Shown here in pieces: positions 5,328-33,210 of a stretch of 40,224 nucleotides of DNA; position 1 is the stretch's first letter; every line of letters begins with the position of its first letter. The notes beneath the pieces are model-generated. The model saw only the letters and a list, made by a program, of their open reading frames with translations, was not told where the DNA came from and ran no database searches. The translations under genes were made by a program, and so were the position numbers. The DNA is taken from the IMG/VR virus record IMGVR_UViG_2734482777_000019; one strand, 5' to 3'. The DNA comes from a virus. Taxonomy: Duplodnaviria; Heunggongvirae; Uroviricota; Caudoviricetes.

Positions 5328-6206
5328 TCAGTAGTTATGTACTGAAGGAGGCAATTCTTTATTCTTAAGTCTCATCCATGCGGAAAGATTCGTTGGTCCG
5401 TCTGGCTCATTAATATCAACATCTCGTGTGTGGTTTATTAAAACGTCTCTCGCCATTCCGATAACATACGAGAATTCATGACCGTAGTCGTAGCATCTGC
5501 CGGAATAGTTCGATTGAATTTGTTTTAGCGCCGGATACAGTTCGCGGAATAATGCCTGTGAGCGGTTGGCATAATCCCATAACCATACAAAGCTGTTTGC
5601 TTCTTTTGCAGAAAGCTCGTTGGTTTTCTTCTCTTGTTTGCCAATGAACTCACCTTCAAGCACTACCCTGTGGATGTACTCTACGGCCAGCGGGATTTGT
5701 TCAATTGAAAGTTCATCAATGCTGTCAATACCAAAACGCTGATGAACCATATTGTATGCATCGTCATAGCGAAGTCCTTTCTTTCCTACCAGCATGTTTA
5801 CTGCATCGCGTAGCGGTGTTCTTTCCTCAACAGTGGTTTTCTTTCCTTTTACATACTCGCCATGTTTGCGAATTGAAGGCAGAACTTCTGCTGTTACCCA
5901 CTTGCGGAATTTGTGCGGGACTGAACCTTTATTGACTGCATCGCGGCAGCGCAGAACCAATGTATACATACCTGATTCGCTCACAATGCTTAGATTCTGC
6001 TCACCACCAAGGGTGTAACTTAAAGTTACTCCCTTTTCATCGTCATCAAGTGCAGTAAGCGCCTTGCGTGAGTTAGTCAAATCTAAAGCATCACAAACAT
6101 CTTTAGCTACAAACCACGGCTCACCGCACTTGTTGATGACGCGGATTTCACTGTCGCCGAATTTGAAGATGGTGAAATCGTTTTGTGCCTTTGCTATACT
6201 TTTCAT
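5328..6206 (-). CDS. ant: Antirepressor (Bro-N domain family) of the immI region
   Basis: 292-aa ORF with Bro-N-like N-terminus ([16 protein letters not shown]); located directly downstream of arc as in P22 immI. Confidence 0.8.
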
Positions 6207-6274
6207 GTCAATATTTCCTAATCCGATTTGTTGATGCCGAAGCCCTGACTGTTACAGCAGTTGGGGCTTCAACT

Positions 6275-21911: not shown

Positions 21912-22379
21912 TCATTTCAGGCACTGCGTGTTGATGTATTCCTGCAGCGCTCTCAGTGATGTTTGGTCGCTGATGATTCCGGATCTGATACTGAGAACGT
22001 TTCGTCCAGCAACTGGAGAGAGTTCGACGGTGGCATCATTGCCCATGCCGGAGGTGCGGGAGGTTTCGGTTGAGGCTGGCACTTGACACTTTCCTTTGAC
22101 GAGCACCCTGCCACCATTATCAAGCTTGCGCCGAAGAGCATCATTTTCAGCTTTCGCATCAGCTAACTCCTTCGTGTATTTTGCATCGAGCGCAGCAACA
22201 TCACGCTGACGCTGCTGCATGTCAGAGATGGTGGCGGTCGCCTGCTTCAGCTCACTGACTTTTTTATCGCGCTGCTCTTTGTAGGCGATTGCGTTATCAC
22301 GGTAATGATTAACAGCCCATGACAGACAGACGATGATGCAGATAACCAGAGCGGAGATAATCGCGGTTACTCTGCTCAT
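21912..22379 (-). CDS. Rz: Rz inner-membrane spanin (i-spanin)
   Basis: 155 aa, N-terminus [31 protein letters not shown]... is near-identical to lambda Rz. Confidence 0.95.
21953..22159 (-). CDS. Rz1: Rz1 outer-membrane lipoprotein spanin (o-spanin), embedded in Rz in the +1 frame
   Basis: [19 protein letters not shown] lipobox and Pro-rich body as in lambda Rz1; fully nested in Rz. Confidence 0.85.
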
Positions 22380-22852
22380 ACCTCAATCTCTCTGACCGTT
22401 CCGCCAGCTTCTTTGAATTTTGCAATCAGGTTGTCAGCCTTATGCTCGAACTGACCATAACCAGCGCCCGGCAGTGAAGCCCAGATATTGCTGCAACGGT
22501 CGATTGCCTGACGAATATCACCGCGATCAATCATCGGTAAAGCGCCACGCTCTTTAATCTGCTGCAATGCCACAGCGTCCTGGCTTTTCGGAGAGAAATC
22601 TTTCAGGCCAAGCTGCTTACGGTAGGCATCCCACCAACGGGAAAGAAGCTGGTAACGTCCGGCTGCTGTTGATTTGAGTTTGGGGTTTAGCATGACAAGT
22701 TTGCGAGGGTGATCGGAGTAATCAGTGAATAGCTCTCCGCCTACAATGACGTCATAACCATGATTTCTGGTTTTCTGTCGTCCGTTATCAGTTCCCTCTG
22801 ACCACGCCAGCATATCGAGGAACGCCTTACGTTGATTATTGATTTCCACCAT
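22376..22852 (-). CDS. R: Endolysin R (lytic transglycosylase)
   Basis: 158 aa, essentially identical to lambda R ([51 protein letters not shown]...). Confidence 0.97.
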
Positions 22853-23159
22853 CTTCTACTCCGGCTTTTTTAGCAGCGAAGCGTTTGATAAGCGAACCAA
22901 TCGAGTCAGTACCGATGTAGCCGATAAACACGCTCGTTATATAAGCGAGATTGCTACTTAGTCCGGCGAAGTCGAGAAGGTCACGAATGAACCAGGCGAT
23001 AATGGCGCACATCGTTGCGTCGATTACTGTTTTTGTAAACGCACCGCCATTATATCTGCCGCGAAGGTACGCCATTGCAAACGCAAGGATTGCCCCGATG
23101 CCTTGTTCCTTTGCCGCGAGAATGGCGGCTAACAGGTCATGTTTTTCTGGCATCTTCAT
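22836..23159 (-). CDS. S: Holin S (dual-start holin/antiholin)
   Basis: 107 aa, essentially identical to lambda S107 including the MKM dual start. Confidence 0.97.
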
Positions 23160-23401: not shown

Positions 23402-23477
23402 TGGTGCTGGTTAACGGACTTGAACCGCTACCCATTCGCTTACAAGGCGACTGCTCTACCATTGGAGCTAAACCAGC
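23402..23477 (-). tRNA. tRNA-Thr (anticodon UGU)
   Basis: 76-nt cloverleaf GCTGGTT..GCTC/GAGC D-arm, anticodon loop CTTGTAA, T-arm GGTTCAAGTCC, acceptor AACCAGC, discriminator A, encoded CCA; one mismatch at the base of the anticodon stem. Confidence 0.7.
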
Positions 23478-23482
23478 ATATT

Positions 23483-23557
23483 TGGCGGGACAGCGTGGAC
23501 TCGAACCACGATAAGAAGGTTAACAGCCTTCCGTAATGACCTTTATACGACTGACCC
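23483..23557 (-). tRNA. tRNA-Asn (anticodon GUU)
   Basis: 75-nt cloverleaf: acceptor GGGTCAG/CTGTCCC (1 mismatch), anticodon stem GAAGG/CCTTC, loop CTGTTAA, T-arm CGTGG-TTCGAGT-CCACG, encoded CCA; loop and T-arm match E. coli tRNA-Asn. Confidence 0.75.
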
Positions 23558-23620: not shown

Positions 23621-24139
23621 CTAAATGGCTAATTGCATGTCAAGGTTTTTAACAGCAACATGCTTAACTTTCTCAACACGTTTACGCATTTTGAAAGCAT
23701 TTTGCATTGGTTGGTACAAAACAAATAATGACGCTTTCAGGATGTCGTCAATTTCGTTTCTACAGGTTGCCAGTGAAGGTTTTCTCCATCCCTCGCCACC
23801 ACGTCCACACATCTTGCGTGGCTTTGCAGTCGCGTGATAGTAGGATGCAATTGCTCGCTTAGATGAACCATGAGCGTAGTAGCTGAGGAGGATGCCAAAG
23901 GCTTTTTTGTCAATGTACATGACGGAATCGACGACCTGAGAAATCAACATTCCATCATCATCATTGCACATTGGCCTTGTCATAACTCTTCCCGGCTCTA
24001 CGCTCTCCATGAACTTCGCTATTACGCTGCTCATGCGCTTTTCCAGACGACCTGAATAAACCCATGCGCCCCACAGTTCAAGCCAGCCATTCAGCCACTC
24101 GTGCTGCTCTTTGGTGAGGTTTAGTTCTCTTATGCCCAC
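23621..24139 (-). CDS. Q: Late-gene antiterminator Q (non-lambda type)
   Basis: 172-aa ORF at the canonical position between ninI and the pR'/tR'/lysis region; Cys-containing; assignment mainly by synteny. Confidence 0.75.
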
Positions 24140-29174: not shown

Positions 29175-30551
29175 TCATACGTCAGCCCCTTGTGCATATC
29201 GTCTGCCACGCGCAGCAGGTGCATTTGATGCTGTGCAAATCTGTCTGGCTTCATCCTGGTCACATGCAACAAAGTGTCCGTTACAGAACCGCTGGTAAAC
29301 CGTACCAAGTGAGCCAAAACGGTTTTTCGTCACGATGATTTCAGCAAATGGCGCGGCGCTACTGTTCTCGTCATATACCGCTTCCCGATAGAGCATGATG
29401 ATTGAGTCTGCGTCCTGCTCAATGCTTCCTGAATCACGCAAATCTGCGTTTGTCGGGCGTTTGTTTGGTCGCTTCTCAACATCGCGAGAAAGCTGACTTA
29501 GGGAGATAACAGGCGTTTTCAGGTCTTTCGCCATCGCCTTCAGGCTTCCTGAGATGTGAGCAATTGCGAGGTCGTTGCGATCTGCTTTCGGCTTCTCAAT
29601 CAGGCCAAGATAATCCGCCATGATGAGTGACAGGTTTGGATTTTCCTGTTTGTGCCGTTCTGCGATTGAGCGTATTTCTTCGACCGATAACCGCGAGGCA
29701 TCGACTACCCATACATCCAAATCTGCAAGCTGACTCATACCGTTAGCAACACGCGCCCAGCCTTCGTCATCCATCGATGCAGGATTTCGCAGTACGCTAA
29801 CCGACATCCTCCCGGCGTTGGCAATGCTTCGCTCTGCAATCTGCAATGCGCTCATTTCCATTGAGAAAATCAATACCCCGCGCCGGACGTCAGAACCAGG
29901 AATAACGCGGCTTGCAACGCCTTCGGCAATCTTCAGCGCCAGTTCGGTTTTCCCCATGCCAGGACGAGCAGCGATTATCACTAGGTCTTCCGCGTTCATC
30001 CCTCCGGTGATGACATCAAGTTCTTCGATTCCGGTCTTCAGGGTATCTGACTCTTCTCCGTTCCTCAGACGCCTGTCAAGCGTGTCAGTGTAGTCAGTGA
30101 TGATTTCCCCTAACCGTACAGGTTTAACCTCGTCACGGGGCTTTCTGATGGCTGAAAGACGCTTTACAAGCTCGTCCATCGCCTGACTCGATGTATCGAT
30201 GGTTCCGCTCTGAATTGGTTCACGCATTTCATCCATGATTTCCAGCACCAGACGGCGGTGATAGTTATCCGCGACCATTCCGGCATATCCCTTCAGGTTT
30301 GCGGCACTCGGGCAGTTTTTGCTGGTCATCAGGATTGACGTGAAATGCTCCTCTCCGCACGCCTCGGCAACCATCAGCGCGTCGATTAGGTTTCTGTTTC
30401 TCGCCTGCTTGCGGATAACTTCGAAGGCTTTCCGGTAGAGCGGAATTGAAAACGCTTCCGGCTCCAGCGTTGCCAGAACGTCGCTGGCGGTTGGTGTTAA
30501 TCCACCAATCAGCAGGCCACCGATAACGCTCGCTTCGATATCCTGTCTCAT
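29175..30551 (-). CDS. Replicative DNA helicase (DnaB family; P22 gene 12-like)
   Basis: 458 aa with Walker A ([12 protein letters not shown]) and DnaB-like C-terminal RecA fold motifs. Confidence 0.9.
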
Positions 30552-31495
30552 GCAATCCCCCTGTCTGCAAACTTCCCTTCCCGTACTCCCGTTAACGAAT
30601 CTTCCCTCAGCAGGTAATCAAAATCTGCCGTCCAGCCCGTGTCGTTGTCTCCGAAGTAAAACGGCTTGGCCTGATGCACAAACGCCCTGACATACGCTCT
30701 GAAACCGTCCACGTTTGGCGTTTTCAGTTGCGGGATGATTTTCTTCAGGCGGCGTTTGCGTTTCTCGTTGACCGCAACAGCGTGTGGCAGTCTGTCACCG
30801 ACTTCGGTGTTGTAGGCGTTCAGGAAGGATTCGTAGTCGATTCGTTCTGCCTTGCGACGTTCAGGTTTAACCTGCCCATCGCCTCCCCCATTGGGGGGTA
30901 GGGGGGTATTATTTATATTCTTGTTAATACCTTCTTGTTCATGATGTGCGGTTGTTTGTGCGGCTTCATGTGCGCTTTCATGTGCGGTATGTACGCTGAA
31001 AGCCGCGCCATTACTGGCTTCGTCATGTGCGGAATCATGTGCGGTTGTTTGTGCGGCTTCATGTGCGGGTGAATTGTCCATTTTTCGAGCGTATTCATGG
31101 TAATTTGTGATGGTGATCACACGACCTTTTTGCTTCTCTCCATCAATGTAGATCATCCCCTCTTTCACAAAAACCTGAAGCATCCGCTCAACCTGATCAC
31201 GGCTTGCCGGCTTGCCATGCCTGTCGCATAACTGAAGACCTAAATCAGCTGCTGTCACAACCAGTTGACCGGGTTGCAGATGCCATTCATGACCTTTGAA
31301 ATTCGCTTTGTATGGCTTTCTGGCGGCATTCAGGAGAAGGTTTTCCCACAGGGTGCGAAGATAAACATCTTTCGCCCATGACTGTTTCAGAATGCTCCGG
31401 TACAACGGAATGTAACCAGTTTTCTGGTTCTCCATCCTGTTGCTCCTGCGCTCGTGTGCGGCGCTGAAATCGTAGATTTTTGCTGTATTGCTCAT
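30548..31495 (-). CDS. Replication initiator (lambda O / P22 gene 18-like) containing the origin iterons
   Basis: 315-aa ORF upstream of and overlapping the helicase gene; central repetitive segment ([11 protein letters not shown] repeats) encoded by DNA iterons. Confidence 0.8.
30900..31070. repeat. Putative replication origin: about 8 direct iterons of a ~12-bp unit (ttcatgtgcgg / ttgtttgtgcgg) plus adjacent AT-rich segment
   Basis: Tandem and interspersed repeats of catgtgcgg-type units at ~30940-31068, including two near-identical 33-bp blocks, followed at ~30900-30940 by AT-rich DNA; same iteron-then-AT-rich order as lambda ori inside gene O. Confidence 0.6.
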
Positions 31496-31497
31496 AA

Positions 31498-31770
31498 CTA
31501 CCTGCCTTGACGAAAGACCTTAAGAACATCGTTAAACTGACTTACGGATATGTCTTCTTTGAGAAGCTTTTCCAGAAATGCGTTTGGAATGAACGTATAT
31601 CCCTCCTCTTTTGGTAGAGACGGGAGCAACGCCCTCGCCTCAGCCTTAAGAAGCTCAGTTCTGGCAACTTTCACAAAAGAGATTTGAGTTCTTTCATCAA
31701 TGGAACGAAGGAAGCGCAAACGCTTAGCTTCTTTGTGTGTATCAGGTGGATTAAAGCCTTTGTTTCGCAT
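31498..31770 (-). CDS. Hypothetical protein between cII and the initiator gene
   Basis: 90-aa product from internal Met (MRNKGFNPPD...) preceded by GAGG Shine-Dalgarno; the longer track ORF overlaps cII out of frame. Confidence 0.5.
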   Translation of the reverse strand: MRNKGFNPPDTHKEAKRLRFLRSIDERTQISFVKVARTELLKAEARALLPSLPKEEGYTFIPNAFLEKLLKEDISVSQFNDVLKVFRQGR

Positions 31771-31792: not shown

Positions 31793-32086
31793 TTAAAATT
31801 CCATTTGTATTTGATCAGAACGCTCGGTTGCCGCCGGGCGTTTTTTATTGGTGAGAATCGAAGCAACTTGTCGTGCCAATCGAGCCATGTCGTCGTCGAC
31901 AACACCCCATTCAAGAACAGCAAGCAGCATTGAGAACTTTGGAATCCAGTCCCTCTTCCACCTGCTGATCTGCGACTTATCAACTCCCACAGCTTCCGCT
32001 GTCTTCTCAGTTCCAAGCATTGCGATTTTGTTAAGCAACGCACTCTCGATTCGTAGAGCCTCGTTGCGTTTGTTTGCACGAACCAT
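31793..32086 (-). CDS. cII: Transcriptional activator CII
   Basis: MVRANKRNEALRIESALLNKIAMLGTEKTAEAVGVDKSQISRWKRDWIPKFSMLLAVLEWGVVDDDMARLARQVA...QIQMEF, essentially identical to lambda CII. Confidence 0.95.
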   Translation of the reverse strand: MVRANKRNEALRIESALLNKIAMLGTEKTAEAVGVDKSQISRWKRDWIPKFSMLLAVLEWGVVDDDMARLARQVASILTNKKRPAATERSDQIQMEF

Positions 32087-32145
32087 ATGTAAGTATTTCC
32101 TTAACAAATAAGAAGTTATGCGCATCAACTTATGCGCGTTGTATT

Positions 32146-32188
32146 CCCGCATTTCGGCAGGAATGAGGACCATGACTGTTAAAGAGCG
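32146..32188 (-). promoter_or_regulatory. nutR candidate (boxA cgctctttaaca; boxB hairpin cctgccgaaatgcggg)
   Basis: rrn-like boxA followed by a hairpin whose core gccgaaatgcggga is repeated in the nutL position. Confidence 0.55.
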
Positions 32189-32195
32189 GTGTTAC

Positions 32196-32405
<210 letters not shown>

Positions 32406-32493: not shown

Positions 32494-33210
<717 letters not shown>

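Follow-up and report, generated by a model that had tools for sequence, protein, structure and literature searches.

The placing of the replication origin inside the initiator gene is an ordinary arrangement, as in lambda and P22. Lambda O binds as dimers to dyad-symmetric sites, four of which, each of ~18-19 bp, stand 20-24 bp apart in lambda; they are followed by an A-rich AT stretch and a GC-richer right arm, and the partner of O is the loader P. Among Stx phages, the replication unit named 'Eru2' corresponds to HK97 O (gp54) and P (gp55) (PMC8044961). Iterons have been described within the initiator gene itself in lambda (O), P22 (gene 18) and phage L (gene 18); those of phage L are six imprecise 11-bp repeats (TGTCCAACGGA), a proposed origin (PMC8022706). 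The replication machinery of Stx phages with non-lambda replication units is said to be uncharacterised (PMC8951638).

The window analysed here, a stretch of 40,224 nucleotides, belongs to a P22-like (Lederbergvirus-type) phage or prophage, for which the E. coli K1 phage CUS-3 is the nearest entry in the phage collection. Its O-like or gene-18-like initiator gene (30548-31495, on the minus strand, as are the other features of this region given below unless another strand is named; 315 aa) was recognised from the ORF list, Pfam and PHROG. It contains a repeat array, an AT-rich stretch and a right arm, which together very probably constitute the replication origin of the phage, built on the lambdoid plan.

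The initiator gene and its neighbours

At full length the initiator matches PHROG 345, 'replication initiation O-like' (1.4e-99), and its residues 20-132 match Pfam Phage_rep_O (PF04492; E 5.7e-15, 56.1 bits with a cut-off of 28.7), the match spanning 113 residues against a profile of 95 positions. Lambda O, P22 gp18 and HK97 gp54 score 114-130 bits with the same profile (lambda O itself 123, as against 56 for the N-terminal domain of the window). At the nucleotide level the gene is ~98% identical to the annotated O gene of CUS-3 and to copies in ~48 Stx2a phages.

The surrounding early-right region holds cI (32497-33210, plus strand) and, in the early-right operon, cro (32196-32396) and cII (31793-32173). 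Directly downstream of the initiator, and overlapping its stop codon, is the gene for a DnaB-type replicative helicase of 458 aa, similar to the product of P22 gene 12 (29175-30551; Pfam DnaB_C 1.9e-77, DnaB 4.6e-13; PHROG 19, 6.4e-135). A 90-aa ORF of PHROG 2519 (unknown function, 1.9e-57) lies between cII and the initiator at 31498-31770, in place of P22 orf48; its stop is 3 nt ahead of the initiator ATG, and it is unannotated in the CUS-3 record.

The repeat array and its conservation

The array occupies nucleotides 428-552 of the 948 in the gene; the Pfam domain ends at residue 132 and the P22-like C-terminal domain begins at about residue 185. On the coding strand there are eight 12-bp units with the core CCGCACAT, divided into two clusters of four, and within each cluster the cores are spaced by exactly 12 bp. 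Cluster 1 (31021-31068) is made of four head-to-tail units, in gene-sense order CCGCACATGAAG, CCGCACAAACAA, CCGCACATGATT and CCGCACATGACG, with the 8-bp cores CCGCACAT, CCGCACAA, CCGCACAT and CCGCACAT at 31061-31068, 31049-31056, 31037-31044 and 31025-31032. Cluster 2 (30944-30987) consists of CCGCACATGAAA, GCGCACATGAAG, CCGCACAAACAA and CCGCACATCATG, with the cores CCGCACAT, GCGCACAT, CCGCACAA and CCGCACAT at 30980-30987, 30968-30975, 30956-30963 and 30944-30951. Between them is a spacer of 33 bp (30988-31020; 37 nt core to core), whose length is invariant in the family. A ninth, degenerate core, GCGTACAT, is present in it at 30989-30996. The left half of the spacer, CCAGTAATGGCGCGGCT, shows conservation, third codon positions being as informative as first and second ones in the window and its relatives. 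The spacer may be a second binding site, or it may set the geometry between two rows. The original prediction of about eight copies of a ~12-bp unit in an O-like gene thus resolves into eight phased units, which Tandem Repeats Finder picks up as arrays of period 12 at 30957-30987 and 31023-31068. In the two near-identical 33-bp blocks of that prediction 31 bases are identical (CGCACATGAAGCCGCACAAACAACCGCACAT, at 31037-31067 and 30944-30974), and the repetitive peptide that it described in the initiator is found as repeats of the xxAH type.

The 40-kb window has eight exact matches to CCGCACAW on its two strands together. Seven of them fall within the 125 bp of the array, all on one strand; the remaining one is at 5911-5918. 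Given the density derived from shuffled sequences, the chance of seven such clustered matches is ~1e-20 per stretch, or ~1e-17 when corrected for all positions. The signal is carried by the exact core and its spacing, not by the mismatch-tolerant 10-mer, which with two mismatches gives 40 matches in the whole window against 41 expected and is uninformative. A search for inverted repeats within the array gave none; the 8-bp core does not match its own reverse complement, and the units recur every 12 bp. Folded as a single strand, the array is no more stable than its shuffles (z about -1.3), and an Rfam scan of the array region matched no RNA family. Two small ORFs in other frames, 30913-31098 and 30935-31072 (the latter on the plus strand), were taken as by-products of the repeats.

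Conservation was scored in relatives of the N-terminal domain (59-85% amino acid identity) from 53 loci of different Enterobacterales species, 48 of which were complete enough; together with two Klebsiella and Yersinia phages and the window itself they form a set of 51 loci, which are not phylogenetically independent. In all 51 the 8-bp cores stand at fixed offsets from a conserved anchor, CATGAACAA, either in a 3+3 layout (offsets 8/20/32 and 77/89/101) or in a 4+4 layout (8/20/32/44 and 89/101/113/125), and the period of 12 bp and the inter-cluster gap of 37 nt are constant. The family consensus of the core is (C/G)CG(C/A)(A/G)CAT. The same geometry was observed in about 140 near relatives, so that the repeats, whose absence from functional homologues would have spoken against the original prediction, are present throughout. 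The layout is unchanged in all of 78 near-identical viral contigs, where only 12 of the 64 core positions are variable, compared with 34 of the 63 positions outside the cores (p = 4e-5). A second scan of viral contigs with a Morganella-type query yielded three loci. Among 5,426 complete E. coli genomes the module occurs in 281 (about 5%), with the same number and spacing of units in about 277 of them.

The phase of the repeats relative to the reading frame allows constraint on the DNA to be separated from constraint on the peptide. In each core, two bases that close one codon precede an Ala or Glu codon and a His or Gln codon. At the four-fold-degenerate third base of the first of these codons, C is present in 328 of 330 units, compared with 860 of 3220 (27%) in the N-terminal domains (p = 4e-167), whereas the amino acid encoded by that codon varies among Pro, Ala, Ser, Thr and Gly. 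Since the silent base is kept and the residue is not, selection acts on the DNA and not on the peptide. This is difficult to reconcile with the suggestion that the repeats serve the protein only, as a flexible His/Ala-rich linker of xxAH repeats between two domains with no role at the DNA level. Such a linker would account for the Ala-His dipeptide kept in every unit, and the region does connect two independently folding domains, whose linkers are often repetitive. However, the codons follow a different logic: His is nearly always CAT (272:9, against 74:20 in the background), and the third base of the Ala codon is near-uniform within a locus and different between loci (GCA in 19, GCG in 32, with isolated single-unit exceptions in about five). 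In addition, HK97 and P22 have unrelated peptides at the same place, each with DNA repeats of its own. A purely protein role is therefore very unlikely, and the repetitive peptide is a by-product of the constraint on the DNA.

A prophage of E. coli N54 (NZ_CM165885.1, 1528463-1529257) has an initiator array collapsed to three units. Recombination between the identical 31-nt blocks has taken out 93 nt in frame, the deletion fitting exactly between them, and no second case is listed for the 281 E. coli genomes that carry the module. Many database copies of the initiator are 'partial' proteins of ~150-210 aa on contigs that end in the array or just past it, which suggests that short-read assemblies often break at the repeats, or else at a mosaic joint common to co-resident prophages. 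Both the deletion and the many truncated proteins, as well as the mosaic joint that adjoins the array (see below), would be expected if the array were an unstable slippage or recombination tract, of the contingency type or as a by-product of mosaicism, with no selected function. The constancy of unit number and spacing in the 78 near relatives and in nearly all E. coli carriers is at odds with this explanation, as is the occurrence of only 3+3 or 4+4 layouts across distant genera, and we consider it extremely improbable.

Layout of the probable origin and exchange of modules

Next in the direction of transcription after cluster 2 is an AT-rich stretch, CATGAACAAGAAGGTATTAACAAGAATATAAATAATA (30907-30943), with 70% purine on the sense strand, a predicted DNA-unwinding element. 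Its part at 30907-30939 has 82% A+T, which makes it the most AT-rich 33-nt segment of the gene and places it in the top 0.2% across the whole window. The stretch is invariant among 53 distinct close variants, and the equivalent place in the 51 loci of the family has on average 75% A+T. It is followed by the right arm, CCCCCCTACCCCCCAATGGGGG (30885-30906), with C runs and a short inverted repeat, which is common to P22 and HK97; in P22 the same element, CCCCCTTACCCCCTAAAGGGGG, lies within the rep_origin feature at 32840-32984 of record BK000583, an annotation that was itself assigned 'by similarity to lambda'. Taken by itself, the hairpin of the right arm lacks significant stability (z = -1.27), and as the folds of the right arm and of the array are close to those of shuffled sequences (z about -1.3), no hairpin-based mechanism is claimed. 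Two of the 78 near-identical viral contigs carry a frameshift that starts at the first C run of the right arm (C6, 30901-30906), which reflects either homopolymer sequencing errors or inactivated copies. A DnaA-dependent origin was considered and rejected: DnaA boxes (TTWTNCACA) number two in the window, below chance, and none is near the array.

The layout agrees with that of the lambda origin in several respects. The site is in the middle of the initiator gene, between a Phage_rep_O N-terminal domain and a partner-binding C-terminal domain; repeats, A-rich AT stretch and GC-richer right arm come in the same order; and most relatives of the N-terminal domain of the window have lambda's own right arm and a lambda-P partner. 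In these lambda-type relatives the array replaces the four annotated iterons of lambda directly before the lambda AT-rich stretch and right arm, TTCGTCAGAGAATTCTGGCGAATCCTCTGAC, and the AT-rich stretch runs into TTCGTC(A/C)GAGAATTCTGGCGAATCCTCTGAC, as after lambda's own AT-rich region. The form of the repeats, in contrast, is not that of lambda: the window has eight asymmetric 12-bp units, head to tail in two clusters, and a DnaB-type helicase as the partner. The ~19-bp iterons with an internal dyad, seen in the sites of lambda and HK97, are the one classical feature that the window lacks. The general plan nevertheless does not demand dyad symmetry, a trait of the classical cases, as the ~11-bp repeats of phage L illustrate. 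Phage L is also a likeness in that its short repeats, of about one helical turn, lie in a P22-like gene 18 and its origin was predicted from sequence alone; it differs in repeat sequence and in initiator, and a two-cluster layout is not part of its description (PMC8022706).

With P22 the window shares the AT-rich stretch, the CCCCC-TA-CCCCC...GGGGG right arm, the C-terminal domain (58% amino acid identity) and the downstream DnaB-type helicase (gene 12); P22 differs in its four ~20-bp repeats of unrelated sequence (…TCGGTAAAA… motif) and in an N-terminal domain without BLAST similarity to that of the window. Since the N-terminal halves are dissimilar and the repeats unrelated, the origin specificity is predicted to differ from that of P22. 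HK97 has the same helicase type and 96% DNA identity from the AT-rich stretch to the end of the gene, and it differs in a lambda-like N-terminal domain and four dyad-symmetric ~19-bp repeats, ATTAGCCAAGTCGGCTAAT, at the same position. More generally, homologues with a different N-terminal domain (HK97, ST104, P22) have different repeats in the same position, and the 12-bp array occupies the iteron slot of two known origin types. With respect to the original prediction, the AT-rich segment next to the repeats was confirmed, and the comparison with lambda O and P22 gene 18 that it recommended places the array in the same slot, with a right arm common to the P22 rep_origin. Its likening of the locus to the lambda origin holds for the layout of repeats, AT-rich stretch and GC-rich right arm and fails for the form of the repeats; the span that it proposed, 30900-31070, covers the array and the AT-rich stretch but stops short of the end of the conserved right arm at 30885.

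The same neighbourhood bears on another possible role of the array, namely that it binds the initiator mainly for control, by autoregulation of O at the level of translation or transcription, by titration or 'handcuffing' of the initiator, or in replicon incompatibility, with unwinding and initiation taking place elsewhere. Iterons have control roles in plasmids, and extra iterons of ori-lambda inhibit lambda replication (PMC3349717); two separated clusters would suit looping or pairing, and there is an isolated iteron-like copy, CCGCACACGA, with one mismatch near the 5' end of the gene (31452-31461, codons 12-15). This copy is, however, not conserved in the Klebsiella and Yersinia homologues and may be a chance occurrence. 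Moreover, the array always stands directly before an AT-rich stretch and a right arm of the lambda or P22 origin, and the window holds no comparable repeat cluster elsewhere, the single further exact core at 5911-5918 aside. A role mainly in control is thus unlikely.

The two halves of the gene have different relatives. Matches to the Klebsiella and Yersinia phages cover gene nucleotides 48-584 and then end, and matches to HK97, Nil2, 2851, ST104 and BTP1 cover nucleotides 574-948 at ~96% identity. These ends define a mosaic joint at 30912-30922 (a feature of neither strand), inside the AT-rich stretch, between the N-terminal domain with its iterons and the right arm with the C-terminal domain and helicase partner. 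The region encoding the C-terminal domain (30548-30906) is of the P22-gp18/HK97-gp54 type and predicted to recruit the helicase; the domain is 58% identical to the C-terminus of P22 gp18 over 126 residues (E 5e-51), and at the nucleotide level the region is 96% identical to HK97 O. The window gene is thus a recombinant, in which a P22/HK97 ('Eru2') right arm, C-terminal domain and helicase have been joined to a different N-terminal domain and its iterons, a family usually found with lambda-type partners.

This pattern extends over the 51 loci. In 48 of them the N-terminal domain and array are joined to a lambda-O-type C-terminal domain, followed by a lambda-P homologue of ~230 aa (Pfam Phage_lambda_P, 5e-60); two, the window and a Scandinavium genome, have a C-terminal domain of the P22/HK97 type followed by a DnaB-type helicase of ~455 aa; and one has a C-terminal domain of a third type. 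The type of the C-terminal domain always tracks the next gene, P22/HK97 with DnaB-like and lambda with P-like, and in all cases compared the array is co-inherited with the N-terminal domain. From this joining pattern the array goes with the DNA-binding domain and the C-terminal domain with the helicase partner, a pairing that, as read from these gene structures, is what the lambda model predicts.

The candidate recognition domain and the proposed mechanism

The N-terminal domain (aa 1-141; 31073-31495) is a predicted winged helix and the predicted reader of the iterons. Its AlphaFold2 model has a moderate mean pLDDT of 73.9, with 80-92 over most of the core, and shows helices at 82-88 and 99-111 and a beta wing at 115-129, as in a winged helix. 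The best Foldseek matches in PDB are all winged-helix DNA binders (CRP, MarR, RosR); they are weak (best E about 4e-3) and are used as support for the fold class only. A PDB sequence search with the domain gave a chance-level match only, to pArc (E 0.65).

A candidate specificity residue is Asp100 (codon at 31196-31198), second in the predicted recognition helix. All 19 loci with the A-type core CCGCACAT have Asp at this position and all 32 loci with the G-type core CCG(C/A)GCAT have His, which makes it the one alignment column that tells the two core dialects apart without exception in the 51 loci. Residue 82 is nearly as good: the A-type loci have Ala (18) or Pro (1), and the G-type ones Ser, Thr or Leu. 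The same correlation was observed in 64 further distinct viral loci, where His (58) or Asn (3) goes with G and Asp (3) with A, and a neighbour-joining tree with the dialect columns masked requires at least five dialect switches. This covariation is good circumstantial evidence that the N-terminal domain reads the core, to which linkage could contribute, as codon 100 is only ~130 nt from the array and the loci are related.

On the lambda and P22 paradigm, from which the steps are taken (see also PMC8022706 and PMC7466680), copies of the N-terminal domain would bind the eight cores, with residue 100 reading core position 5. The resulting nucleoprotein complex, like the O-some of lambda, would strain and open the adjoining AT-rich stretch; the C-terminal domain, of the P22 gp18/HK97 gp54 type, would bring in the phage's own DnaB-type helicase, encoded directly downstream, and host primase and polymerase would then begin bidirectional replication. 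The asymmetry of the units and their close spacing of 12 bp make it probable that the proteins bind one way round in a close-packed row; as the units have neither the dyad symmetry nor the ~20-bp spacing of characterised O-binding sites, this binding mode is a guess. A more specific version may be put forward tentatively, though we hold it to be rather doubtful: that this divergent Phage_rep_O domain binds asymmetric 12-bp sites as one-directional close-packed rows, two rows of three or four with a fixed spacer between them, that residue 100 (Asp or His/Asn) sets core position 5 (A or G), and that these loci form a distinct sub-class of lambdoid origins. Binding of this kind, if true, would be nearer to that of plasmid Rep monomers on iterons than to that of lambda O dimers on dyads. 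There would then be two mutually orthogonal origin 'dialects', switched several times, and related prophages may coexist without cross-talk.

The 12-bp repeat type appears to be undescribed, although the kind of origin is known from ori-lambda and P22. We found no description of it in the literature searched (CUS-3, P22, Stx phages, iterons), a literature search by core sequence returned unrelated primer-type matches only, and origins are not a topic of the papers in which related replication units of Stx phages are classified. The findings leave the established view of lambdoid replication as it is. What the analysis adds is the location of the probable origin of a module carried by CUS-3-like phages, by about 5% of complete E. 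coli genomes and by about 48 sequenced Stx2a-converting phages, where the rate of phage replication bears on toxin output. It also provides a clean natural case of an initiator gene and origin assembled from exchangeable parts, with the swap point in the unwinding stretch. Finally, the predicted Asp100-A/His100-G switch could be used in the design of orthogonal phage or plasmid origins.

Several other features of the window were observed in passing. A strong intrinsic-terminator-like hairpin with a T run (31817-31844, plus strand) is antisense to the 3' end of cII, at the site equivalent to the oop RNA terminator of lambda and P22. The sar antisense RNA (Rfam RF00262, 65.6 bits; 6208-6274, plus strand) marks a P22-type immI (ant/arc/mnt) region. 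Adjacent phage-borne genes for tRNA-Thr (TGT) and tRNA-Asn (GTT) at 23402-23557 (minus strand) are flanked by a 172-aa ORF (23621-24139) and three small ORFs (21912-23159); judged by position alone, the tRNA pair looks to be where Stx phages have their tRNAs and toxin genes, with the late antiterminator on one side and the lysis genes on the other.
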